Source: Deltaproteobacteria bacterium (GTDB taxonomy: Bacteria; Desulfobacterota; Binatia; Binatales; Binataceae). Taken from it: a stretch of DNA of 64,000 bases. The DNA is taken from contig JAJXYF010000010.1 in the NCBI GenBank assembly GCA_021780755.1, positions 173,238 through 237,237 of the forward strand, given 5' to 3'. The notes beneath the pieces were generated by a model that saw only the letters and a list, made by a program, of their open reading frames with translations, was not told the DNA's origin and did not search any database. The position numbers and the translations under genes were made by a program. Positions 8,481-63,429 of the stretch are shown here, one piece after another. The stretch's first letter is position 1, and every line of letters starts with the position of its first letter.

Positions 8481-8731
8481 TTTTCGGATAGCGTCGGTGG
8501 GCATTCGCGGGACTACGTCGTTTCAAAAATAATAGCGGGCGGACATCATCGATTCATAAGCCTGTCAGAGCTCACGAGCTCGTCATCGAAAGTAAATTCA
8601 TCCGCTCCCTACAGGCCCGGGTTGTGATCCGCCGGAAGAATCGGACTCGAGAGCAGCTAATCGTTCCGGCTGCTCATTACCGTAAGCTCGCACGCTCTCG
8701 CTCCAATCACAATTTTCGGTTGCCGTAATTC

Positions 8732-8760
8732 TTGACACAGTAGACTTCCTGTAATTTAAT
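8732..8760 (+). promoter_or_regulatory. near-consensus sigma70 promoter (TTGACA-N17-TTTAAT) driving the low-GC islet ORFs
   Basis: TTGACA at 8732-8737 and TTTAAT at 8755-8760 with a 17-bp spacer, about 50 bp upstream of the first islet ORF. Confidence 0.5.
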
Positions 8761-8813
8761 ATCGTCAGCGTTACGGTATTACCGAAATGGATCAAAATAA
8801 GAGAGGCCGAGCG

Positions 8814-9557
8814 ATGGCAACAGAGCCGCCGAGTGAAGAAAAACAGCCGGAGAACAAACAAGCTCCGCCCTATGTACCATATCAAACCTTTGAAGCCTTT
8901 CTGGAGAGGCTCAAAGGCACTGTGACACCTACGCGTATCGACTCGAGCGTGTTGCGACACTTGTCTGGCTCCACGCAAACTCAGCTTCTTTCGGCGCTCA
9001 AGTTTCTCGGACTGATAAAGACCGACGGCGCGGTCAACGAATCGCTTAGGCGGATGGTCATCGCCTATAAAACTCAGAAATGGAAAGAGGAGTTGACCGC
9101 GCTGATCGCGGCGCCTTATCGGCCGATAATAGGAGACCTCGACATCGCTACTGCCACCTCTGCGCAACTGAAAGAAAGGTTCCGCGAAGCAGGCGGCGTC
9201 GAAGGAGATACCGTCGAAAAATGCATCCGTTTCTACCTGATGGTACTGAAAGAAGCCGGTGTGCAATTTTCACCGCTCCTTAAAATTCGGCAGCGCATTG
9301 CTCGCGGGACAGGTTCGAAGCGGGCGAACAAGCAGCGCAGCGCCGCGCCCTCGGCTGTCTCTGAAAACGGAGATGAGGATTTCCAAGCACCCGAAGGAAC
9401 TTTCAAGATTCCCTTGGATATTCTTGGGATTGCCGCAGTCCTCTATTTGCCAACAGAAATCACACAGAAGCGCTGGGACGCAATCAGTCAATATGTCAAG
9501 ACGCTGATCGGCTTGAGAGCCACCGCTATGGGGGCTGACGAAGATGAAGGCAACTAG
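8814..9557 (+). CDS. hypothetical protein (low-GC islet gene 1, ~247 aa, no recognised family)
   Basis: Long ORF in the AT-rich islet. The ATG at 8814 has a good SD (AAGAGAGG, 7 nt spacer); the ATG at 8787 is the alternative. Soluble, charged protein. Confidence 0.5.
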   Translation: MATEPPSEEKQPENKQAPPYVPYQTFEAFLERLKGTVTPTRIDSSVLRHLSGSTQTQLLSALKFLGLIKTDGAVNESLRRMVIAYKTQKWKEELTALIAAPYRPIIGDLDIATATSAQLKERFREAGGVEGDTVEKCIRFYLMVLKEAGVQFSPLLKIRQRIARGTGSKRANKQRSAAPSAVSENGDEDFQAPEGTFKIPLDILGIAAVLYLPTEITQKRWDAISQYVKTLIGLRATAMGADEDEGN

Positions 9558-9598
9558 GACAAATCGAAAAGGGTTGGCTGCGGGAGCAGTTTGAGGCG

Positions 9599-9967
9599 AT
9601 GACCGACGATCCGTCCATTCTCGGCTCTGTAGTCGTTTACCGGCGCATACAGGCTGCATATTTGGATTTTGACATGACAGGCAAACCGGTCATTTCGGAT
9701 GGAGCCTTTCGGACGAAAGCCCTGTCAGTGTTTCGATGCGACAAGGTAACTGAGTCCGAAGTCTTGAACGGCTACCCAATGGACGGGTTGGTTCAGGTCA
9801 GCATTCAAGCTATTCGCGATGCGGGCTGCATTGTGGAATACGACGAACCGCCAACCGGACATATTTGCGTGTATAAAAAAGACGCCCCAGGTTCACGCAT
9901 CTCTAGCGGCTCGGCGGCCAGAATGGCGCGTGCAGCGACTTGGGTTAAGGTACCGATAAAGCCGTAA
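9599..9967 (+). CDS. hypothetical protein (islet gene 2, 122 aa)
   Basis: ORF 42 bp downstream of gene 1 on the same strand. No family recognised. Confidence 0.4.
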   Translation: MTDDPSILGSVVVYRRIQAAYLDFDMTGKPVISDGAFRTKALSVFRCDKVTESEVLNGYPMDGLVQVSIQAIRDAGCIVEYDEPPTGHICVYKKDAPGSRISSGSAARMARAATWVKVPIKP

Positions 9968-9975
9968 CAGTGATG

Positions 9976-10320
9976 TTAACGCCAGCGCATCCAGTTTAGG
10001 AGCGCGATTACATGCCGCTCATAATCCTCTGCAATCTCGCCCTCAGTGCTCGGTTTACCATCAATGATGGTCAAATAGGCAAGGTGTTCGCTGTCTGGCA
10101 GAATTTCCAGATCGAGTTCTCTACTTGTGCCTTTCCACTCGAACTGAACACCACCAATTTCCGTGGGAAATACGAACGGAGCGGGCGACCGTTCGCTATC
10201 AATTAAAAGTGCAATCTGACGAGCACGTTCGAGTGCTCGAGAGCACGGGGACGTGGGCGATTGTTCAAGCCCCTTGAGGGCGTCAAGCGCACTCCGTTGC
10301 GGGGTTTGCAATTCAGGCAT
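9976..10320 (-). CDS. hypothetical protein (islet gene 3, 114 aa, convergent to gene 2)
   Basis: ORF with a GGGGG SD-like motif 8 nt upstream of its ATG. No family recognised. Confidence 0.4.
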   Translation of the reverse strand: MPELQTPQRSALDALKGLEQSPTSPCSRALERARQIALLIDSERSPAPFVFPTEIGGVQFEWKGTSRELDLEILPDSEHLAYLTIIDGKPSTEGEIAEDYERHVIALLNWMRWR

Positions 10321-10636
10321 TGCTTTCTACCCCCATGGTTACAGTTTAGTCACTGTGCGCCCCGGAAGATACTGCAATATTTTGGGATCAACAAGTTTGG
10401 CTGGAGCGTTTCGCCTACCATGGTCATGCTGCTTTACTACTGCTTTTGCTGCGTTCTTCCGTGGTTCGCCGCCGTGTGGGCCTTTACGCCCTTGAGGCCT
10501 TCGAGCCGTCTTAGTGCCGCCGCACGGCCCTCTGCGGACCTCCTTTTCGCTCAAATCCAACCCGTTCGTTAGCATCAATGTAATGCGGGTGCGCCCCGTG
10601 TTTAACGATGGTGAAGGCCGGAAGCGCCGACCCGGA

Positions 10637-11911
10637 TCAGGTGCCGGTTTCCCAGCTCGTCAGATACTTCTTCTGCTCCGCCGAGAGCACGTCGATTTTG
10701 ATGCCCATCGCGGCGAGCTTCAGGCTCGCGACTTCGTCGTCGATCGCCTGCGGTACGTTGTGCACCGCTATCGGCAGCGGATCGATGGTCGCGGTCCAGC
10801 GCGCGGCGAGCGCCTGCGTCGCAAAGCTCATATCCATCACCTGCGCGGGATGACCCTCGGCGCACGCCAGATTGACCAGCCGGCCCTGGCCCAGAATGTA
10901 CAGCGTGTGCCCGTTGCCGAGCAGGTACCCGTCGACGTGATTGGTGACGTTGCGATTGATCTGCTTGGCCGAGTCGTTGAGATAGGCGATGTCGATCTCG
11001 ACGTCGAAATGGCCCGAGTTGCACAGGATCGCGCCGTCCTTCATCAGGCTGAAATGCGACGGGTTGAGCACCGAGCGGTCGCCGGTCGCAGTGATGAAGA
11101 TGTCGCCCACCTTCGCCGCCTCGACCATCGGCATCACGCGCAGCCCGTCCATCGCGGCTTCCAGCGCGCGCACCGGATCGACTTCGGTCACGATGACGTC
11201 GGCGCCGAGGCCGCGCGCGCGCGACGCGATGCCGCGTCCGCACCAGCCGTAGCCCGCGACCACCACAATCGAGCCCGCGATCAGCACGCCGGTCGCGCGG
11301 ATGACGCCGTCCATGGTGGACTGCCCGGTGCCGTAGCGGTTATCGAACAGATGCTTGGTCTGGGCGTCGTTGACCGCGACCACCGGAATCTTGAGCGCGC
11401 CGTCCTGGGACATCGCGCGCAAGCGGATCACGCCGGTGGTGGTCTCCTCCATGCTCGCGCGGACTTCGGTCGCCTGCGCGAGGAACTCGGTATGCAGCAT
11501 GCTGACGAGGTCGGCGCCGTCGTCCATCGTGATCGTCGGATGGCGCTGAATCACCGCACGCAGATGGCTGTAATAGGTGTCGCGATCCTCGTCGTGAATC
11601 GCATACGCCGGGATGTCGTACTCGGCCACCAGCGCCGCAGCCACGTCGTCCTGGGTCGAGAGCGGATTGCTCGCGCAGCAGAAGACCTCCGCGCCGCCGG
11701 CCTTGAGCGCGCGCAGCAGATTGGCGGTTTCGCAGGTGATGTGCAGGCACGCGCCGAGGCGCTGCCCCTTGAGCGGCAGTTCCTTGGCGAAGCGTTCGCG
11801 GATGATCCGCAGCACGGGCATCTGCCGGTCGGCCCATTCGATTCGTTTGCGGCCATTCTCGGCCAGCGCGAGGTCGCGAACGTCGTGCCCGTTGCCCTTG
11901 GACTTGGGCAT
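10637..11911 (-). CDS. ahcY: adenosylhomocysteinase
   Basis: 424 aa with unmistakable AhcY sequence throughout, including the NAD-binding GYGWCGRG motif. Confidence 0.95.
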
Positions 11912-53585: not shown

Positions 53586-53855
53586 ATGACCAAGGCGGAG
53601 TTGATCGAAGTGCTCGCTCGCGCCACGCGCCAGCAGAAAAAGATCGTCGCGACGACCGTCGAAATGACCTTCGATCAAATTGCCCGCGCGATTCGCAAGG
53701 ACAAGCGCTTCTGGATGCCCGGCTTCGGCACCTTCTCCGTCCGCCGCCGCAAGCCGCGCGCCGGATTCAATCCGCGCACCAAAACCGCGATGACGATTCC
53801 GGCCGCTCGCACGGTCGGCTTTCGCCCCGCGCCGAAGCTGAAAAAAAGTCTGTGA
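53586..53855 (+). CDS. HU/IHF family DNA-binding protein
   Basis: MTKAELIEVLA... with the conserved beta-arm GFGTFSVRRRKPRAGFNPRT. 89 aa. Confidence 0.8.
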   Translation: MTKAELIEVLARATRQQKKIVATTVEMTFDQIARAIRKDKRFWMPGFGTFSVRRRKPRAGFNPRTKTAMTIPAARTVGFRPAPKLKKSL

Positions 53856-55378
53856 ACGCTGGCCCGAGTCACGCTCCGGCCCCGCCGGAAATCTCCGCCG
53901 ATTCGCGCCGCGATTCCCGCGAATTTCCGACTCCCGGCTGCGGCACCCTTGCGATACTGGCCCTCGCGCTCCTCATCGGCGGCGGTCTGCGCTTCGCCGA
54001 TCTCGGCCGACGCGAAATGTCCGCCGACGAAGGCGCCTCCTGGGCGGCCGCCTCCGCCCCGACCGTTCACGCCGTCCTCCTCGCCCAAAGCACCCTCAAT
54101 CCCGGCAAGGCCGGACTCCATGACCTCGCATTGCATCTCTGGATTCGTGCGTTCGGCGACCGCCTCGCCACGATGCGGATGCTCTCCGCGGCCCTCGGCA
54201 CGCTCGCGATTGTGCTGGTCTTCGGCACCGCGCGGGAACTTTTCGCCGCAGGCATCAATTCCGCCGTCGGCACACGCCCCGATGCGCATCGGCATGATGA
54301 AGCCGCCGCGATCGCCGCACTCATCTTCGCGGTCAACCTCGTCACCATCAAATATTCGCGCGAAGTGCGGATGTACCCAATCGTCATTGCGGCCGTCGTT
54401 GCGCAGACCTGGTGCTTTTTCCGCGCGCTGCGGCGTGGACGTTTCGCCGCTTACGCCGGGGTCGCGATCTTCACCGCGGTCGCGCTTGCCGCGCATGTGA
54501 TGGCGGCGCTGGCCTTCACCGGCGAGGGGCTATGGCTGGCCGGCGTACTCGCGCGCGATCGCTTCGACTTCGCCGCGATGCGCGCGCGGCGCGCGCTTGC
54601 CCTCGTGCTCGCCCTCGGCGCGGGGGCCGCGATGCTAGCGCCACTTGCCCCCGCCATCATTTCCGGTGCCGCCCACGCCGCCGATATCGGCGCCATCGAT
54701 TGGATCAAGCGCCCGCCGCCATGGGCGCCCTTTGCGTTGTTCAACAAGGCCACCGGCAGCGTCGCGTTCCCCGTAATGGCCGCGCTCGCGATATGGGCTG
54801 TGGTCCGCGGATGGCCCCGCTGGCGCGACGCGATCGTCTTCGCGCTCCTTTGGATGTGGACACCGCCGATCGTCCTGATGTTCGTCTCCTACGCGATTCG
54901 CCCGGCCTTCGTCGAGCGTTACCTGATCTCATGCTTCGTCCCATTCTTCATCCTGATTGCGATCGGCGTCGCCGAACTCCGCACGCGTTCCGTCCGCCTC
55001 GCCGCGATCGGTTTGACGGTGGCCCTCGCACTTGGTCACGTCGTCGCATGGGATCGCAAACCGCATGACGCGCAATGGCGCGAGGCCGCGCGCGCCGCCG
55101 CAACTTCATTCACTTCGACAACTTCCAGTTCTTCGAGCTTAAACAACGCCACGCTGGCCGTCGCTCCCGGCTATGCCGTCAACGTCGTTCGCTATTACTT
55201 GCAAGCGGATTCCGCGACACCAACGGCCCATCCCGCCGCCGCGATCGGCCCCGATCCTGCACCCGTGGTTCTGATCGGCGACCAGGGTGTCGCACCCTCG
55301 ATGGCCGCCACGCTCGATCGCGAATACCCGCGTCCGCTGGCTAATCTGCGCGGGGTCATGGTACGGGGACGTTACTAG
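53852..55378 (+). CDS. GT-C fold glycosyltransferase, family 39/83-like (PMT/ArnT-type, polyprenyl-phosphate-sugar dependent)
   Basis: Multi-TM protein with an N-terminal LRF.DLGRREMSADEGASW motif resembling the DE-containing first loop of PMT/ArnT enzymes. GTG start overlaps the HU stop; start is uncertain. Confidence 0.6.
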   Translation: MNAGPSHAPAPPEISADSRRDSREFPTPGCGTLAILALALLIGGGLRFADLGRREMSADEGASWAAASAPTVHAVLLAQSTLNPGKAGLHDLALHLWIRAFGDRLATMRMLSAALGTLAIVLVFGTARELFAAGINSAVGTRPDAHRHDEAAAIAALIFAVNLVTIKYSREVRMYPIVIAAVVAQTWCFFRALRRGRFAAYAGVAIFTAVALAAHVMAALAFTGEGLWLAGVLARDRFDFAAMRARRALALVLALGAGAAMLAPLAPAIISGAAHAADIGAIDWIKRPPPWAPFALFNKATGSVAFPVMAALAIWAVVRGWPRWRDAIVFALLWMWTPPIVLMFVSYAIRPAFVERYLISCFVPFFILIAIGVAELRTRSVRLAAIGLTVALALGHVVAWDRKPHDAQWREAARAAATSFTSTTSSSSSLNNATLAVAPGYAVNVVRYYLQADSATPTAHPAAAIGPDPAPVVLIGDQGVAPSMAATLDREYPRPLANLRGVMVRGRY

Positions 55379-55413
55379 ATGCGCGAATTTCGCCAAGCAA
55401 TACAGGTGCCCGG

Positions 55414-56274
55414 ATGAGCGAGAATACAATTGACCCGCAACAGTTGAAGGACGAACAGCGCCGCGACTGGGACGCCGCCGCGGCCGGTTGGAAAAAATGG
55501 TGGCCCGTGTTCGAGCGTTCCGCGCAGCACGTCAGCGATCGCCTCGTCGAATTGGCCGCCGTCAAAGCCGGCTCCCGCGTCCTTGACGTCGCGACCGGCA
55601 ACGGCGAGCCCGCGCTCACCGCCGCGCGTAGCGCCGGAGCCACCGGCCGCGTCATCGCGACCGATCAGTCCGCCGGCATGCTCGCCATCGCGCGCGAGCG
55701 CGCCGCCGCACTCGGCGTCGCCAACGTTGAATTTCGCCAAACCGACGGCGAAGCCCTCGCCATCGACGATCGCGACTTCGACGCGATCGTCTGCCGCTGG
55801 GGCCTCATGTTCATGCCCGACGTCAAGGGCGCGTTGCGTGCGATGCATGATCGCCTGCGTATCGGCGGCCGCCTCGCGACCTCAGTTTGGGCCGCCGCCG
55901 ACAAGGTTCCCATGATCAGCATCGGCGCCGAAGCGGTGCGGCGCATCGCCAATCTTCCGCCGCCGCCCGCCGACGCGCTCGGCCCGCTGCGCCTCGCCGA
56001 TGAATCGATCATGCGTGCCGCGCTCGCCGCGGCCGGTTTCAAAGACGTTTCCGTCGAGCGTATTCCGGTTACGTTCGAGATGGATTCAGCCGCCGATTTC
56101 GTGCAATTCCGCTGCGACGTCTCGGCCCAGTTCCGCATGTTGCTCGATCACCAGCCGGCCGACGTCCGGGCGAAAATTATCGCGGCGGTCGCGGACGGCG
56201 CGCGTGCCTATGCCGACGCGAGCGGACGCGTCCGCACCGTCAACGAAACCATCTGCTTCGCCGCCACGCGCTGA
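55414..56274 (+). CDS. class I SAM-dependent methyltransferase
   Basis: Motif I VLDVATGNGEP, and motif post-I/II. 286 aa. Confidence 0.85.
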   Translation: MSENTIDPQQLKDEQRRDWDAAAAGWKKWWPVFERSAQHVSDRLVELAAVKAGSRVLDVATGNGEPALTAARSAGATGRVIATDQSAGMLAIARERAAALGVANVEFRQTDGEALAIDDRDFDAIVCRWGLMFMPDVKGALRAMHDRLRIGGRLATSVWAAADKVPMISIGAEAVRRIANLPPPPADALGPLRLADESIMRAALAAAGFKDVSVERIPVTFEMDSAADFVQFRCDVSAQFRMLLDHQPADVRAKIIAAVADGARAYADASGRVRTVNETICFAATR

Positions 56275-56369
56275 TTCGCGCCGCGTCCTGCGCTCATCGC
56301 ACGCCCCCCCCCAACGTGCTGCCATAGCGATGACATCTTGGTATCGTGGGCGCGGAGGGGAGGTGCGCG

Positions 56370-56408
56370 ATGGTCCTGGTGGAGATCGAGATTCCCGGTC
56401 GCGTCTGA
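56370..56408 (+). other. 12-codon upstream ORF (MVLVEIEIPGRV) with strong SD, in frame with and 2 codons before the TTG start of paralog 1
   Basis: GGAGGGGAGG at 56355-56364, 5 nt before the ATG at 56370. TGA at 56406-56408. TTG at 56415 is in the same frame. Confidence 0.3.
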
Positions 56409-56414
56409 ATCCGT

Positions 56415-58067
56415 TTGACGATTCCGGCTTACCACACGCCTGCGGCCGCGACGCCTGATGGCGCGCCCGATACCGCGGCGGCGCCGCGCCGCTCGCTGCT
56501 CCGCCACGCGCCCGCGATCGTGATCCTGCTGATCGTGGTTGCCGACGCCGCGCAGTTTCCGGACCCCGACCTGTGGGGCCATCTGCGCTTTGGGCAGGCC
56601 GCGCTCGCCAGCGGTCACGTGATCGTCCGTGACACATATTCCTACAGCGTGGCGGGCGGCGTCTGGCGCAATCACGAATGGCTCACCGAAATAGTCATGG
56701 CGCTCGCCTACAACAGTCTCGGCGTCTTCGGGCTCAAGTTATGGAAGTTCGCCTGCGTCGCCGCGACCATCTTGCTGATGGCGCTCGCACTCGCGGAGAC
56801 CGGCGCTTCCCCCGCGATTCAGATGAATACGCTCGGACTCGCCGCACTCGCGATGGTTCCGCAAAACCAGTTCCGCCCGCAGCTCTTCACCTTCATGCTC
56901 CTTGCCGCGACGCTCGCGTTGCTGACGCGGGACAATTATCGCGGTCGCGCACCGCTCTGGTTGATGGTTCCGATCATGGCGCTGTGGGGCAATCTGCACG
57001 GCGGCTTCATCATCGGTATCGCGACCCTCGCGACCTACGCCGGCGTCGTCGCCGTGCGGGATTGGCTCGCCGGGCGCGGCCTCGGCCGCGCGCTCCGCCT
57101 CGGCCTGATCGCGCTCGCCGGAACCCTGGCGACGCTGATCTCGCCATATGGCATCAACGCATGGCTCGTCGTGCTGAACGCGCTCAAGCATTCCGCAACC
57201 CAACCCGTCATCGCCGACTGGCAGCCCCTGCTCTCCGCGATCGCCCTGGGATGGAGCACGCATCCGGCCGACACCATCTTCTTTATCTGCGGGGCGCTCG
57301 TGATGTTCGCGTTCGCGCTGGTCTTCATCCGCACACCGCAGGCGGGCGACCTTCCGCTCGTTGCCATCGCGGCGATCTTGAGCGTTGCCGCCTTCATAGC
57401 GGTACGGAACATGCCGCTCGCGATGATCGCGTGCGCGGCGCCGCTCGCCCGTCACGTGGAGTTGCTCTTTGCGCGCCGGCGCGATCGCCAACTCGCGCAA
57501 GGTCTCGCCGGCCCCCCGGCGACCGGCGCCGACGACGCTGTCGCGGCGGCTGTGTCTGCCGACGATCGACCGGGCTCCAACCCATGGCTGGTCGCCTCTA
57601 TCGCGATCGTCCTTGCGCTCGTCAGCGGGATCTTCTCCACCCACATTTCCGTCGGCGCCGAATCTCCCGTCGGCGCTGCTGCCTTCATGCGCCGGCACGA
57701 CCTCCGTGGCAACATCCTCAGCGCCTTCGGCAACGGCGAATATCTGATTTGGCACCTCGCGCCCGCCTCCCGCGTCTTCATCGACGGGCGCTATGATACC
57801 GTCTATCCGCAACGGGTCGTCGATCAATACCTCGACTTCATCAACGCGCGACCCGACGCGCTGGCCGTCCTGCAAGCCTATCCTCACGACTTCGTGCTGG
57901 TGTCGGCCAACGGTCCCGCGCTCGGCGTTATGCGCCATGCGCCCGATTGGACGCTCATCTACCGCGATCCGCACTGGGTCCTTTTCGCGCGGGCGGATTC
58001 GGCCGCGGCGAAAATGCCCGGCGTCCCCTTCACGGGAAATCCGCCGCCCATCAGTAATTTTCCATGA
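56415..58067 (+). CDS. large integral membrane protein, paralog 1 of 3 (putative GT-C-like glycosyltransferase; family not assigned)
   Basis: 550 aa, ~10 TM helices. Shares conserved blocks with paralogs 2 and 3 (DxDLWGH.RFGQ, HEWL.E, LKLWKFAC, RPQLFTF, LWxNLHGGF, C-terminal FIDGRYDTVYP). TTG start. Confidence 0.8.
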   Translation: MTIPAYHTPAAATPDGAPDTAAAPRRSLLRHAPAIVILLIVVADAAQFPDPDLWGHLRFGQAALASGHVIVRDTYSYSVAGGVWRNHEWLTEIVMALAYNSLGVFGLKLWKFACVAATILLMALALAETGASPAIQMNTLGLAALAMVPQNQFRPQLFTFMLLAATLALLTRDNYRGRAPLWLMVPIMALWGNLHGGFIIGIATLATYAGVVAVRDWLAGRGLGRALRLGLIALAGTLATLISPYGINAWLVVLNALKHSATQPVIADWQPLLSAIALGWSTHPADTIFFICGALVMFAFALVFIRTPQAGDLPLVAIAAILSVAAFIAVRNMPLAMIACAAPLARHVELLFARRRDRQLAQGLAGPPATGADDAVAAAVSADDRPGSNPWLVASIAIVLALVSGIFSTHISVGAESPVGAAAFMRRHDLRGNILSAFGNGEYLIWHLAPASRVFIDGRYDTVYPQRVVDQYLDFINARPDALAVLQAYPHDFVLVSANGPALGVMRHAPDWTLIYRDPHWVLFARADSAAAKMPGVPFTGNPPPISNFP

Positions 58068-59644
58068 CCGCCGCCGTCAATTCGCGCTCGCTCCCGCCCG
58101 CGGCCTCGCTCCTGCGCTACGCGCCCGGCCTCGTCGCACTCATCATCGTCATCGCCGACTCCGGTCAAACCACCGATACCGATCTGTGGGGTCACATTCG
58201 CTTCGGCCAGGCCGTCATCGCCCTACACCATCTCGTACTTAAAGACCCATATTCCTACACTATGTATGGTAGCCCGTGGAGCAACCACGAATGGCTCACC
58301 GAGGTCGTGATGGCAGCCGCCTACAACGCCTTCGGCGTGGTCGGTCTCAAACTGTGGAAGTTCGCCTGTGCCGCCGCCACCATGCTGCTGGTCGTGACCG
58401 GCCTCGCCGAAACCCGCGCCACCCCCGCCGCGCAGCTCAACACGCTCACCGTTGTCGCGATCGCGATGATGCCGCAGATGGAGTTTCGCCCCCAGCTCTT
58501 CACGTTCATGCTCTTCGCCGCGATGATCGCGCTGCTCGCCCGCGATAATTATCGCGGCCATGCGCCGCTGTGGCTGGTCATCCCGATGATGGCGCTCTGG
58601 GCCAATCTCCACGGCGGCTTCATCATGGGCATCGCCGCGCTTGCGCTCTACGCCGGTGTCGTCGCAATCGGCGATCTGGCCGGCGGCGCCGGTCTCGCTC
58701 GCACCTTGCGCCTTGCCGCCCTGGCCGTTGCCGCGCTCATCGCCACCATGGCCACGCCCTATGGCCTCGAAACCTGGAGCCCCGTCCTCCACGCCCTGCG
58801 CAATCCGATGACCCGCATCGCCGTTACCGACTGGCAGCCGCTGCTCTTCGCGATGCTCCGGCAGTGGCGCGCGCAGCCCGCCGGCGTCATCTATATGCTC
58901 TGCGCCGTCGCCCTGATGTTCGCCTTCGTCTCGACCGTCGGCCTCGAACGCCGCGGCGGCGATTCGCCACTCATCGCCATCGCCGTCGTCATGTGCGTCG
59001 CCGCCTTCGTCGCCGTGCGCAATCTGCCGCTCGCGATCATCGCGTGCGCGCTGCCGGTCGCGCGCCACTCGTCGCTGCTGTTCGCCCATCTGCGCGAGCG
59101 CGCCGAGGCCGCCACCGGCGAGAAATTTGACGCCCCGTCCGCGCGTTCTTCCACCAGCCCGTGGCTTGCCGGTGGCATCGCGGCCGCACTCGCCGTCTAT
59201 AGCGGCATCTTCTCGCCGCGCCTACGGATGGATAAACCGTATCCGTCGGGCGCCGTCGCCTTTATGCGGGCGCATGATTTGCACGGTAACCTCCTCGCCG
59301 ATTTCGGCTGGGGCGAATATATGATCTGGCACACCGCCCCCGCCTCGAAGGTCTTCATCGACGGCCGCTACGACACCGTCTATCCATACACGCTGATCGA
59401 TCGCTATATCGATTTCTACTTCGACCGTCCCGGCGCAGCGGCCGTCCTGACCGCATACCCGCACGACTTGGTCCTTATTCCTCCCACCTCCCGCGCCTAT
59501 AATCTGATGTCGCGGCAGGCCGATTGGAAAATGATCTACCGCGACGCCGGCAGCGCGCTCTTCGCGCGCACTGCTTCGCCCGGCGCGCATATCGCCGGCG
59601 TTCCCGTCGCCGGCAACGCGCCCGAGGTCGCCTACTTCCCATGA
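58064..59644 (+). CDS. large integral membrane protein, paralog 2 of 3
   Basis: 526 aa. The ATG overlaps the paralog 1 stop (ATGA). About 60% identical to paralog 1 by eye over the N-terminal half. Confidence 0.85.
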   Translation: MTAAVNSRSLPPAASLLRYAPGLVALIIVIADSGQTTDTDLWGHIRFGQAVIALHHLVLKDPYSYTMYGSPWSNHEWLTEVVMAAAYNAFGVVGLKLWKFACAAATMLLVVTGLAETRATPAAQLNTLTVVAIAMMPQMEFRPQLFTFMLFAAMIALLARDNYRGHAPLWLVIPMMALWANLHGGFIMGIAALALYAGVVAIGDLAGGAGLARTLRLAALAVAALIATMATPYGLETWSPVLHALRNPMTRIAVTDWQPLLFAMLRQWRAQPAGVIYMLCAVALMFAFVSTVGLERRGGDSPLIAIAVVMCVAAFVAVRNLPLAIIACALPVARHSSLLFAHLRERAEAATGEKFDAPSARSSTSPWLAGGIAAALAVYSGIFSPRLRMDKPYPSGAVAFMRAHDLHGNLLADFGWGEYMIWHTAPASKVFIDGRYDTVYPYTLIDRYIDFYFDRPGAAAVLTAYPHDLVLIPPTSRAYNLMSRQADWKMIYRDAGSALFARTASPGAHIAGVPVAGNAPEVAYFP

Positions 59645-59678
59645 CGCGCGCATCGGCTCCACGTGCGAGCGTTCGAGC

Positions 59679-61277
59679 ATGCGTCCGATGAAACCGATCG
59701 CCGCACCGTCCCTGCTGCGCTACGCGCCCGCCTTCGTGTTTCTCGCGGTCGCGATCGCCGACGCCGGCCGCGTCGCTGACACCGACCTCTGGGGACACAT
59801 CGCGTTCGGCCGGCTCTTTCTCCGTGTCGGGCCAGTCAGCCACGACCCCTACAACTATTCGGTGCCTGGGCATGCATGGGCGGTTCACGAATGGCTCGCC
59901 GAAGTGATCATGGCGCGAACCTACGACACTTGCGGAATCCTTGGCCTGAAATTGTGGAAGTTCGCCTGCACCGCACTGACCATCATCATGCTCGCGATGG
60001 CCGCGGCCGAGACCGGCGCCGCACCGCCCCTTCAGGCCGCCGTGCTGGTCACCGCAGCCGTCGCGTTGATGCCGTTGATGCAATTCCGCCCTCAGCTCTA
60101 TACCTACATCTTCCTTGCCGCCCTCATGGCGTTGCTGGCACGTGATAATTACCGCCGCCGCGCACCACTCTGGCTCGTTGTTCCGGTCTTCGCGCTCTGG
60201 GCCAATCTGCACGGTGGTTTCGTCATCGGCGTTGCCGTGCTGGCGCTCTATGCCACTATCGTGTCGGCCGAGGACCTGATCGGCAGGCGCGGATTTCGCC
60301 GCGGCACCCGTCTGTTCGGCGTCACCCTCGCGGGCGCGGTCGCTACGCTGGCGAATCCCTACGGCGTCTATGCGTGGTCGCACGTTCTTGGCGCGCTCAA
60401 CGATCCGCTCACACGCAAGGCCATGGTCGATTGGCAGCCGTTGATCGTTGTCCTCGCGAATTCGCACGGGCTCCATTCGGGCGTCATCTTCTTCGCGCTG
60501 GTGGTCGCGATTCTTGTCGTCCTCGCACTGGCCGTTATCATCACTGCGCGCGGCGGCGATCTCCCGCTGATTGCGATCGCGGCCCTGATGGGCGCCGCCG
60601 CCTTCGACGTCGTGCGCAATATGCCGCTGGCGGTCATCGCCGCGGTCGCACCGCTCGCACGTCATCTGCATCTGATCGGCATCAAAATGCGCGCCGCCTC
60701 CGCACCCGCTTCAGCTATCGCAGAACCTGGACCCGCCGCGGTCACCCCCGCCCCTGCCGCCACCGAACCCGGCCATTTCAACCGCGCCGGCCAAATCGTG
60801 ATCGTCGCGGGCGCGCTGGTGTTGACGCTGGGCAAAGGCGGTCTGCTGTCGCCACGACTACCGGCGGCGATGAATTACCCGGTTGGCGCCATCGCATTCA
60901 TGCGCTCGCACCAACTGGGCGGCAACCTGTTGGCGCGCTTCGAATGGGGCCAGTATGCGATCTTTCACCTCACGCCCTCCTCGCGAATCTTCGTTGACGG
61001 TCGCGTTGATCTCGTTTATCCGCCGCAGGTGATCGACCAGTATGTGGATTTCTTCGCCGGGGCGCCCGGCGGCGCCCGCCTGCTCGACCGCTATCCACAC
61101 GACTACGTCTTGATGCCGTCCGGTTCGCCGGCCGACCGCACCGTCTCCGCGCGACCCGACTGGCGGCTGATCTACCGCGACCCGGTCGCGGTGCTCTTCG
61201 CCCGCGCGGGCGCGCCCGCCGCCCGCCTGCCCGGCGTGCCGTTCAAGGCGGCCGCCCCGACTTCCGATTTTCCCTGA
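59679..61277 (+). CDS. large integral membrane protein, paralog 3 of 3
   Basis: 532 aa with the same conserved blocks. Carries an extra Ala/Pro-rich linker (ASAPASAIAEPGPAAVTPAPAATEP). Confidence 0.85.
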   Translation: MRPMKPIAAPSLLRYAPAFVFLAVAIADAGRVADTDLWGHIAFGRLFLRVGPVSHDPYNYSVPGHAWAVHEWLAEVIMARTYDTCGILGLKLWKFACTALTIIMLAMAAAETGAAPPLQAAVLVTAAVALMPLMQFRPQLYTYIFLAALMALLARDNYRRRAPLWLVVPVFALWANLHGGFVIGVAVLALYATIVSAEDLIGRRGFRRGTRLFGVTLAGAVATLANPYGVYAWSHVLGALNDPLTRKAMVDWQPLIVVLANSHGLHSGVIFFALVVAILVVLALAVIITARGGDLPLIAIAALMGAAAFDVVRNMPLAVIAAVAPLARHLHLIGIKMRAASAPASAIAEPGPAAVTPAPAATEPGHFNRAGQIVIVAGALVLTLGKGGLLSPRLPAAMNYPVGAIAFMRSHQLGGNLLARFEWGQYAIFHLTPSSRIFVDGRVDLVYPPQVIDQYVDFFAGAPGGARLLDRYPHDYVLMPSGSPADRTVSARPDWRLIYRDPVAVLFARAGAPAARLPGVPFKAAAPTSDFP

Positions 61278-61397: not shown

Positions 61398-61489
61398 GGA
61401 GAGGTGGCAGAGCCCGGTTTAACGCGCACGCCTGGAACGCGTGTAGACTCGAAAGGGTCTCGGGGGTTCGAATCCCCCCCTCTCCGCCA
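61398..61489 (+). tRNA. tRNA-Ser (anticodon GGA), with encoded CCA
   Basis: 7-bp acceptor stem GGAGAGG/CCTCTCC, anticodon loop CCUGGAAC, long variable arm, T-loop GGTTCGAATCC, 3' GCCA. Confidence 0.8.
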
Positions 61490-61707: not shown

Positions 61708-63429
61708 TTAGTTGATTCCGAGCGCCCGTTCCTGCTCGCTCCAAAGGAGCGGCAATTCGATCCGTTCAGTGAGAGCCTTCGCAGTAAGCTCCGGCGGCTG
61801 GTGACCCCCGACGATGGCCTCGACAATCCTCGGCGACAGGAACGCCAGCCGAGTCAGACGGCGGACGTAGTTCGGGAGCACCCCTTCACGCCTGGCGAGC
61901 GCTGCGACCGATTCCACTTGACCGCTCAGCAAATCGTCAGCCCATTGGCGTCCCCGCGCGATCGCTTTGATGAGCGCGAGATCGGCCAGTGGAGCTGGCG
62001 CGCGACTGCCCTGGAGAACCAGTCGCATTTCGAAGCCGCGCCGCCTGATCTGCATCGGGAAGACGCGCGTGATCGTGAGCGCAGTGGGGTTCGCACCGAG
62101 CTGCTTTTCCGAGATGGAAGTTGGCAGTTTGAGGGACACGCGAATACCTGTGTTGATGAGGTCGACACGATCGACCAGTGCATTCAGGGCGGGACCAACT
62201 TCAACCTCCGATTGCAGGCGCTTCATCCATGCCGCCGCGAGTGAGAACAGGGATGGCAGTTGGTGCTCGGCAAGATCGATTGCAACCGCTGCGTCTGCGA
62301 TCGCGGCTTCATCACCAAGCATCGTGGAGACCGCCGCCGCGGCGGCGCGTTCGATCTCAGGTGCTGGCAAGCGCCAACTGCTCCGCCGTGAATCCGATGT
62401 TCCGTTGATCAGATTGCGCGAGACGTAATAGCGATATCTCCGCTCGCCTTTGACCGCGTGACTGGGCGTCAGGCTCTGGCCGCTATGGTCGAACAGCTTA
62501 CCGGTCAGCGGACTTGGGGCTGATTTCCTTGCTCGTGGCGCATGTGTCGCCGCGTGGCTTCGCAGCATCAGCTGCGTACTGTCCCATAGATCGCGATCCA
62601 CGATCGGCTCATGGAGCCCCGGGTGGCGGACGCCCTTGTGGCGAATCTCGCCGATGTAAATGGGATTGGAGAGTGTCCCATAGAGCGCTCCTCGGAAGAA
62701 CGGGTTCCCGCCTGACTTGCGGCCATTGCTTGCGACCCGGGCTTTGGATCGGATGCAGCGGCGATTCAGATCCTCCATCAGGAGCCGGACCGACCCGAGT
62801 TCCAGGTAGCACCGGAAGATCTCACGCACCGTCTCGGCTTCCGCTTGATTCACGACAAGACGCCGGTCAATCGCGTCGTAACCGATCGGCACCACACCGC
62901 CCATCCACATACCCTTCTGCTTGGAGGCTGCGATCTTGTCGCGAATTCTTTCGCCCGTTACCTCGCGCTCGAACTGGGCGAACGACAGCAGTACATTGAG
63001 CGTCAGGCGTCCCATCGAGGTCGTCGTATTGAACTGCTGGGTGACGGCCACGAATGAGACACCGCGCGCGTCGAACACTTCGACCATCTTGGCAAAGTCG
63101 GTGAGCGAGCGGGTCAGGCGGTCGACCTTGTAGACCACCACGACATCGATCAGCCCTTGACTGATATCAGCGAGCAGACGCTGGAGCGCCGGTCGTTCCA
63201 TCGTCCCGCCTGACAGACCGCCGTCGTCGTAAGCAGTTTTGACCAGGCGCCATCCTTCACCGGCCTGGCTCTTGATGAACGCTTCGCAGGCCTCGCGCTG
63301 CGCATGTAGCGAGTTAAAATCCTGTTCCAGTCCTTCCTCGGAAGATTTGCGCGTGTAGATCGCGCAGCGGCGAACCGGTGTCTTACCTTGCTGCATGGTT
63401 GTTCTCCATAACCTGCGATCGTAGTCCAA
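61708..63429 (-). CDS. large serine recombinase (resolvase/invertase catalytic domain + recombinase + zinc-ribbon/coiled-coil domains)
   Basis: N-terminal CAIYTRKSSEE...DGGLSG catalytic serine motif, then the recombinase domain. 573 aa. Oriented toward the tRNA. Confidence 0.9.
   Translation of the reverse strand: MDYDRRLWRTTMQQGKTPVRRCAIYTRKSSEEGLEQDFNSLHAQREACEAFIKSQAGEGWRLVKTAYDDGGLSGGTMERPALQRLLADISQGLIDVVVVYKVDRLTRSLTDFAKMVEVFDARGVSFVAVTQQFNTTTSMGRLTLNVLLSFAQFEREVTGERIRDKIAASKQKGMWMGGVVPIGYDAIDRRLVVNQAEAETVREIFRCYLELGSVRLLMEDLNRRCIRSKARVASNGRKSGGNPFFRGALYGTLSNPIYIGEIRHKGVRHPGLHEPIVDRDLWDSTQLMLRSHAATHAPRARKSAPSPLTGKLFDHSGQSLTPSHAVKGERRYRYYVSRNLINGTSDSRRSSWRLPAPEIERAAAAAVSTMLGDEAAIADAAVAIDLAEHQLPSLFSLAAAWMKRLQSEVEVGPALNALVDRVDLINTGIRVSLKLPTSISEKQLGANPTALTITRVFPMQIRRRGFEMRLVLQGSRAPAPLADLALIKAIARGRQWADDLLSGQVESVAALARREGVLPNYVRRLTRLAFLSPRIVEAIVGGHQPPELTAKALTERIELPLLWSEQERALGIN

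Follow-up and report, generated by a model that had tools for sequence, protein, structure and literature searches.

Glycosyltransferases of the GT-C fold build or decorate bacterial envelopes in O-antigen serotype conversion, in lipid A modification and polymyxin resistance, in mycobacterial arabinan and in protein glycosylation. Here, three tandem genes for polytopic membrane proteins are compared with these enzymes. They are located on the plus strand of a 64,000-nucleotide stretch of a Deltaproteobacteria bacterium genome of the family Binataceae (assembly GCA_021780755.1, contig JAJXYF010000010.1, positions 173,238 to 237,237), referred to below as the window, and they encode paralogue 1 (P1, 56415..58067, 550 amino acids (aa), TTG start), paralogue 2 (P2, 58064..59644, 526 aa) and paralogue 3 (P3, 59679..61277, 532 aa). 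The lengths of the three proteins were reproduced by public gene calls on identical contigs. Judged against Pfam, NCBIfam and PDB sequences, the paralogues are classed as a new family within the known GT-C fold. We consider it reasonably probable that they work in the periplasm, where they would transfer sugars from polyprenyl phosphate step by step to an envelope glycoconjugate, the sugars possibly being methylated.

A three-component architecture of Gtr type has been described for periplasmic glycosylation (PMC11127046, PMC13390465). The paralogue family resembles GtrC and ArnT in its GT-C fold and in an acidic motif just after the first transmembrane (TM) helix, and on four plasmids its members hold the position of GtrC in GtrA/GtrB/GtrC systems and of ArnT in the ArnC-ArnD-ArnE/F-ArnT pathway, after GtrA and a glycosyltransferase of family 2 (GT2) with two C-terminal TM helices. 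In the Arn pathway, ArnD modifies the lipid-linked sugar before flipping, and the methyltransferase that stands between synthase and flippase in the plasmid cassettes would be its parallel. Unlike GtrC, ArnT and PMT_2 proteins, the family has no sequence similarity to any annotated model of these proteins, and neither P1-P3 nor 33 diverse members matched the Pfam models PMT (PF02366) and PMT_2 (PF13231). In further contrast to the Gtr systems, the window is devoid of GtrA and GtrB, an S-adenosylmethionine (SAM)-dependent methyltransferase recurs as a fourth component of the plasmid cassettes, and the transferase is multiplied three- to four-fold in Binataceae.

The best structural match of the family is to the catalytic subunits of oligosaccharyltransferases (OST), STT3, PglB and AglB (GT66); the match extends over the TM core and the C-terminal periplasmic domain, and a D-x-D in the first external loop is shared, although identity is only 9-14% and the paralogues have about 525 aa compared to 700 or more. 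A similar genetic arrangement is that of embC-embA-embB (GT53), also three adjacent and anciently diverged GT-C paralogues with periplasmic C-terminal domains. The Emb proteins divide the labour on one cell-envelope polymer, and a heterodimer is formed among them. No close structural and sequence similarity to these arabinosyltransferases was found for P1-P3.

A similar architecture has been described for GT136 (ORF12 of Citrobacter youngae O1), the GT-C of a pentofuranose three-component system, which had no similarity to existing glycosyltransferase (GT) families at its discovery. It has 11 TM helices and a catalytic Asp near TM1; TM1 is followed by a small alpha-helical periplasmic domain, and TM11 by a further periplasmic domain (PMC11127046). 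In contrast to the paralogue family, its partners are a UbiA-type phosphoribosyl synthase and, as flippase, a MATE/SMR protein instead of a GT2 and GtrA (PMC11127046), and it is a protein of 652 aa with a beta-rich carbohydrate-binding module at residues 503-652 and an EpsG-family match in CDD. When plasmid NZ_CP032687.1 of Rhizobium sp. CCGE531, listed as the carrier of a GT136-type system (PMC11127046), was searched by tblastn with P2, no match was obtained.

Paralogy, predicted fold and conserved residues

In the initial annotation, six plus-strand genes had been placed between positions 53,586 and 61,277 of the window, the last three as clear tandem paralogues, and both statements were confirmed. 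P1 and P2 are 56% identical and P2 and P3 48%, end to end over about 520 aa, with a mean column identity of 69%; the paralogy of the three proteins is far beyond chance. The motifs that had been quoted for them (D-x-D-LWGH just after TM1, HEWL, LKLWKFAC and LW(A/G)NLHGGF) are present in every copy, as is the C-terminal block, which reads FIDGRYDTVYP in P1 and P2 and FVDGRVDLVYP in P3. The copies differ most in a cytoplasmic loop, TM11, external loop 4 (EL4) and TM8-9. The proposed translational coupling of P1 and P2 is based on a real overlap, in which the stop codon of P1 and the start codon of P2 share the sequence ATGA.

The structure of P2 was modelled by AlphaFold2 with 35 homologues (predicted local distance difference test, pLDDT, 89; predicted template modelling score, pTM, 0.89). 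When this model was used as a query in Foldseek, ranks 1-26 were all occupied by GT-C proteins, with STT3 at the top (E 2e-6), and the model superimposed on solved GT-C enzymes. At the level of the predicted model, the answer for the fold class of the three paralogues is therefore a clear one, GT-C. Transporters were also considered as candidates and rejected, as the MFS, ABC and rhodopsin folds appeared only with Foldseek probability <0.15 and a TM-score of ~0.1.

The model contains 11 TM helices with a cytoplasmic N-terminus, so the polytopic core proposed in the initial annotation was retained, but not its count of about 10 helices. A helical first external loop (EL1, residues 33-84) bears the D-x-D-L-W-G-H and H-E-W motifs and is followed by a second long external loop (EL4, residues 228-271), a variable cytoplasmic loop (residues 341-365) and a C-terminal periplasmic alpha/beta domain of ~145 aa (residues 380-526). 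The long external loops are EL1 and EL4; the turn between TM9 and TM10 has only ~3 residues. The inside/outside assignment assumes a cytoplasmic N-terminus, as in all GT-Cs. Under this assumption, the density of Lys plus Arg among 33 diverse members was 0.17 in the predicted cytoplasmic loops versus 0.06 in the periplasmic ones, EL1 being net acidic, and because of this loop charge the conserved Asp pair is predicted to be periplasmic. The GT-C architecture that had been suggested from the letters was in this way borne out by the P2 model, the Foldseek matches and the predicted periplasmic position of the DxD loop.

Conservation was concentrated on the same side of the membrane. Among 33 members that share ~28-30% identity with P2, 22 positions were invariant, with D40, G43, W72, H75, E76, G91, R142, W179, N181, H183, G184, G189, P232, G234, W257, R319, P394, N409, D433, R435 and Y440 on the list and D38 kept in all but a few members. 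Twenty of the 22 are located in external loops, at membrane-periplasm boundaries or in the C-terminal domain, and the other two, G91 and G189, inside TM helices. Invariant residues at the periplasmic ends of helices are R142, W179-x-N-x-H-G, W257 and R319, and those of the C-terminal domain include N409, D433-G-R435 and Y440. All 22 residues are present in each of P1, P2 and P3.

It had also been stated that no named GT family fits these proteins, and the searches against Pfam, NCBIfam and PDB sequences agreed with this. At E<=1, P1-P3 gave only a spurious Pfam match to TMEM215 (E 0.46), distant members only spurious ones to EpsG (E 0.087) and DUF6358 (E 0.08), and the 33 diverse members matched no GT model, with a spurious DUF7134 (E 0.0022) as the only signal. 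No NCBIfam model was matched by P1-P3. A three-sequence profile found nothing among PDB sequences, and with the 33-sequence profile only a short NPxG..W stretch in designed beta-propellers was detected, which was judged spurious.

Distribution of the family and its neighbours on plasmids

A search with a hidden Markov model retrieved 29,622 representative clusters (50% identity) at E<=1e-3, and 4,731 at E<=1e-30. The nearest relatives are encoded in metagenome-assembled genomes of Candidatus Binataceae, whereas distant members (27-36% identity) were found in Chloroflexus, Terriglobia and Bryobacterales, Gemmatimonadota, Planctomycetota, Nitrospinota, Anaerolineae and Desulfatibacillum alkenivorans DSM 16219. 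Plasmid-borne members were detected in cultured Phyllobacterium, Pararhizobium, Methylobacterium, Sulfuricystis, Azospira, Granulicella and Alicyclobacillus. All the members examined are named "hypothetical protein" at their source, no relative was present in the viral contigs scanned, and no description of the family or of a GT2-methyltransferase-GtrA-GT-C cassette was found in the literature. Tens of thousands of clusters from more than 10 phyla without a Pfam or NCBIfam model constitute a large blind spot in the annotation of envelope glycobiology.

On four plasmids, from Phyllobacterium zundukense, Pararhizobium qamdonense, Sulfuricystis multivorans and Azospira sp. I09, a tight same-strand cassette was found in the order GT2, class I SAM methyltransferase, GtrA and family member, with the member last; Sulfuricystis and Azospira have two tandem members each. 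The Phyllobacterium protein is a full-length member (hhalign probability 100%, E 6e-41, 447 columns) and the other plasmid members align over ~490 residues. The GT2s of the cassettes bear two C-terminal TM helices, as in polyprenyl-phosphate glycosyltransferases of the GtrB/ArnC type. Read from their genes, the cassettes have the three-component architecture of the Gtr systems with an added methyltransferase, and the member takes the predicted position of GtrC. They are compact, and their hosts are culturable proteobacteria.

The cassettes of Sulfuricystis pSTJ1 (locus L082, 3618-8956) and Azospira pAZI09 (L088, 3708-9041) are nearly the same, and their first members share 86% identity at the protein level. 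Both replicons are betaproteobacterial plasmids, one conjugative and the other mobilisable, and in both the cassette is located between a PRTRC-system gene and traG. A conserved open reading frame (ORF) of 47-56 aa is located between gtrA and the first member, with the shared sequence DPxASFWLKEAL...TRDPVDALNDAE. The presence of such similar cassettes on two plasmids suggests a horizontally mobile surface modification.

In Phyllobacterium (L080, 5777-10389, plasmid NZ_CP104971.1), two Flp-family type IVb pilin genes lie immediately 5' of the cassette, and TadE-like and RcpC/CpaB genes were detected 1-3 kb from the member in several Gemmatimonadota loci and one Caldilinea locus (L047, L050, L051, L065). 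From these neighbours, some lineages may use Tad/Flp pilins as the acceptor. In Desulfatibacillum, a PMT/PMT_2 GT-C and a GT2 flank the member, and the GT9 heptosyltransferase beside them gives a lead to lipopolysaccharide as acceptor. Neither lead is directly applicable to the window.

GT2 genes were not restricted to the plasmids. Orthologous small GT2s adjoin members in Binataceae (L039), Smithellaceae (L045) and Desulfatibacillum (L069), and a more distant one adjoins a Chloroflexi member (L066). At the Binataceae secondary locus (L039, 9505-11076), a 524-aa fusion protein is encoded directly 3' of the member, with a GT2 domain at residues 33-206 and a class I methyltransferase domain at residues 303-441, and this fusion supports a functional link of sugar-lipid synthesis and methylation. 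Methyltransferases like that of Sulfuricystis were also found in the vicinity of members at L003 and L028, and it is a domain of this kind that the L039 fusion contains. Judged by sequence comparison, the association with methyltransferases is recurrent but not monophyletic. Outside Binataceae a universal conserved neighbour was sought and not found, the clusters of neighbours being lineage-specific.

A comparable set of genes has been reported in the GtrA-dependent gsf cluster of Actinoplanes missouriensis, whose deletion leads to smaller sporangia (PMC13390465). There, AMIS_70420 has 11 TM helices and no predicted domain, and its neighbours are a GtrA gene, a GT2 with 2 TM helices and a SAM methyltransferase; no GT-C was found in the cluster by its authors (PMC13390465). 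AMIS_70420 could be a member of the paralogue family.

The Binataceae locus and the age of the array

The window shares the gene order TrmFO, Ppx, HU, [PMT-like GT-C], methyltransferase and paralogue array with other Binataceae, 18 loci in all having this order. The copy number is 1-4 in Binataceae arrays and one in 41/41 non-Binataceae genome loci scanned. Arrays of three or four copies were seen only in Binataceae, and two copies also on two plasmids. In a neighbour-joining tree, the window copies grouped with the position-matched copies of L001, L005 and L021 with bootstrap values of 97%, 99.5% and 100%: P1 is the orthologue of copy 2 in the L001 and L021 arrays, which have four copies each (clade bootstrap 97%), and P3 that of the final copy in L001, L005 and L021 (100%). 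Therefore, the window carries copies 2, 3 and 4 of an ancestral four-copy array. On this phylogeny, the duplications are old, and the copies have stayed distinct. A recent lineage-specific duplication was rejected, as the window copies were monophyletic in 0/200 bootstrap replicates. The conserved locus of these uncultured bacteria, in which four GT-C enzymes are encoded next to core housekeeping genes, points to an envelope glycoconjugate that defines the lineage.

The gene directly 5' of P1 (55414..56274, plus strand) encodes a class I SAM-dependent methyltransferase of 286 aa, as the initial annotation had it, with Pfam matches to Ubie_methyltran (E 5.8e-20) and Methyltransf_25 (E 4.1e-19); against NCBIfam, only generic sub-threshold matches were obtained. 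The protein has no TM segment and is therefore taken as cytoplasmic. Homologues (46-76% identity) were present in 18/18 syntenic loci, in most of them directly 5' of the array, L004 and L006 being rearranged. In L001 (7631-8341) and L021 (4033-4740), a 236-aa short-chain dehydrogenase/reductase is encoded between the methyltransferase and the first paralogue; it was considered as a conserved partner and discarded, as neither the window nor the other loci have it.

The preceding gene, GTup (53852..55378, plus strand, ~508 aa), had been called GT39/ArnT-like, and its predicted fold agrees with this label. GTup belongs to the GT-Cs of the PMT/ArnT kind and has no sequence relationship with the paralogues. 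The GT-C fold of its model is nearest to that of PMT/ArnT and includes a small alpha/beta domain at the C-terminus, and the motif S-A-D59-E60 after TM1 contains an invariant D59-E60 pair. Compared with PMT (GT39/GT83), its score against Pfam PMT_2 (15.4 bits, E 0.023) lies below the gathering threshold of 26.1 bits and its model has no MIR domain, but several homologues (47-52% identity) carry PF13231 and/or PF11028 in precomputed annotation, and some of them are named "ArnT-like glycosyltransferase" or "mannosyltransferase" by JGI. When the profile of the paralogue family was aligned with the PMT_2-like profile of GTup by hhalign, the probability was 0.7%, which means no relationship. The most likely start, and the only plausible one 5' of TM1, is GTG 53852, which overlaps the HU stop codon as GTGA. 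This overlap (53852-53855) would couple the translation of a nucleoid protein gene with that of an envelope glycosyltransferase gene. In the loci that have no PMT-like gene, the methyltransferase comes directly after HU, and in L004 the two matches overlap by ~10 nt.

Proposed role and rival explanations

In the mechanism proposed, each paralogue would work on the periplasmic face, with a polyprenyl-phosphate carrier as the source of the sugar and an envelope component as its acceptor, the role of GtrC, ArnT and the Emb proteins, with one EL1 aspartate, assigned by its position, as putative base or metal ligand. The three intact and anciently diverged copies would differ in donor, acceptor or linkage specificity and, with the PMT-like enzyme, would work on one periplasmic glycoconjugate, either in turn or as hetero-oligomers. 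By analogy with ArnD, the cytoplasmic methyltransferase would modify the lipid-linked sugar before flipping. The putative use of a polyprenyl-linked donor has indirect support from the GtrB-like GT2 and GtrA genes beside members on four plasmids. The initial annotation had also proposed a multi-step pathway of glycosylation and methylation, which is still only a proposal, supported now by the strict synteny of methyltransferase and array in Binataceae and by the plasmid cassettes with GT2, methyltransferase, GtrA and member.

Several observations weigh against this reading. The proteins of the plasmid cassettes found nothing by tblastn in the 64-kb window when GT2 and GtrA were used as queries, and no GT2 or GtrA gene was present in the syntenic Binataceae loci; as there is no such gene in the window, the genes for making the donor presumably lie outside it. 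Glycosylation-related neighbours are absent from most of the 41 non-Binataceae loci. The methyltransferases beside members belong to different subfamilies, the window enzyme matching the plasmid ones with only E ~1e-5 and not being orthologous to them, so they may accompany the family by coincidence or for a different chemistry. As 5/18 syntenic Binataceae loci have no PMT-like gene, it is not an obligate partner. In addition, the GT-C assignment is that of a predicted model, and the putative catalytic roles are assigned from residue position only.

The closest match in fold would agree with a function like that of STT3, PglB or AglB, in which a preassembled glycan is moved en bloc from a polyprenyl-diphosphate to periplasmic proteins and the copies differ in glycan or sequon preference. 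We regard this as quite unlikely, since the family fails the tests of OST membership. The WWDYG, DK/MI and EL5 TIXE/SVSE motifs are missing; WWDYG in particular is absent from P1-P3 and from the family consensus, where the nearest string is F-x-W-G-E-Y-x-I-W. P1-P3 matched neither the STT3 profile in Pfam (E<=1) nor the solved OST sequences in PDB sequence and profile searches, and a topology of 13 TM helices with a long EL5 carrying the catalytic Glu was not seen in the 11-TM model of P2. Moreover, the partner genes of the family point to single-sugar monophosphate donors, unlike those of OSTs. It would also be conceivable that the three paralogues are subunits of one hetero-oligomeric enzyme and not independent enzymes that work in sequence, some copies being perhaps mainly structural or regulatory. 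The genes are tightly packed, with P1 and P2 coupled by ATGA, the set is co-retained across genomes in a fixed order, and EmbA-EmbB and Pmt1-Pmt2, both in the structural match list of P2, are GT-C precedents. Nevertheless, every family-invariant residue is kept in all three proteins, so that none looks like a pseudo-enzyme, and a copy number that ranges from 1 to 4 in Binataceae and is one in all the non-Binataceae loci indicates that a single copy is evidently enough for function; a hetero-oligomer of this type seems unlikely. Very improbable is a role as GT-C-fold proteins without transferase activity, for lipid-carrier binding or as a scaffold in the way of PIG-U/GAB1, or as transporters. 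The initial annotation had named a non-glycosyltransferase family such as a transporter, and aspartates outside a periplasmic loop, as findings that would speak against it; transporters came up only at chance in Foldseek, and the loop charge puts the Asp pair in the predicted periplasm.

Beyond stepwise periplasmic transfer by the paralogues from polyprenyl-phosphate sugars, a wider proposal is offered only tentatively and is rather doubtful as a whole. According to it, an unrecognised GT-C family, among the largest unnamed ones, would end a four-component periplasmic pathway, with a GtrB-like GT2, a SAM methyltransferase that modifies the lipid-linked sugar, GtrA as the flippase and the GT-C. 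The pathway would add O-methylated sugars to envelope glycans or, depending on the lineage, to Flp/Tad pilins; in Binataceae the family would have radiated to 3-4 specialised copies that build a lineage-specific periplasmic glycan. What is notable in this system is the size of the unannotated family, the recurrent cassette with a methyltransferase and the ancient three- to four-fold array of Binataceae; the fold class and the general mechanism are familiar.

Other features of the window

The first gene of the cluster (53586..53855, plus strand) encodes an HU/IHF-like DNA-binding protein of 89 aa (Pfam Bac_DNA_binding, E 4.4e-25), for which all the NCBIfam IHF/HU equivalogs scored below their cut-offs. 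It is a conserved neighbour of the cluster, located directly 5' of it in 18 Binataceae loci. Further 5' in the window, only housekeeping genes were found (dprA, a large ORF, an ECF-type sigma factor, YCII, trmFO and ppx), the large ORF occupying the position of topoisomerase I in L001. A scan for promoters and terminators gave signals at chance level, and an Rfam scan detected tRNA only.

A tRNA-Ser(GGA) gene is located at 61398-61489, 120 nt 3' of the last paralogue, and is followed on the minus strand by a gene for a 573-aa large serine recombinase with Resolvase and Recombinase domains (61708-63429). The GC content drops to 0.61 over 62-64 kb of the window, and a mobile element seems to have integrated here at the tRNA gene. 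The array of L001 is followed by called genes and not by a tRNA.

At the other end of the window, a low-GC island (8500-10450, 0.55 versus ~0.64) contains ORFs of 256, 122 and 114 aa that fail the test for native genes based on GC at third codon positions (GC3), and is possibly a small foreign insert. It sits between a membrane protein gene and a 424-aa ORF (10637-11911) that, judged by eye only, resembles S-adenosylhomocysteine hydrolase.

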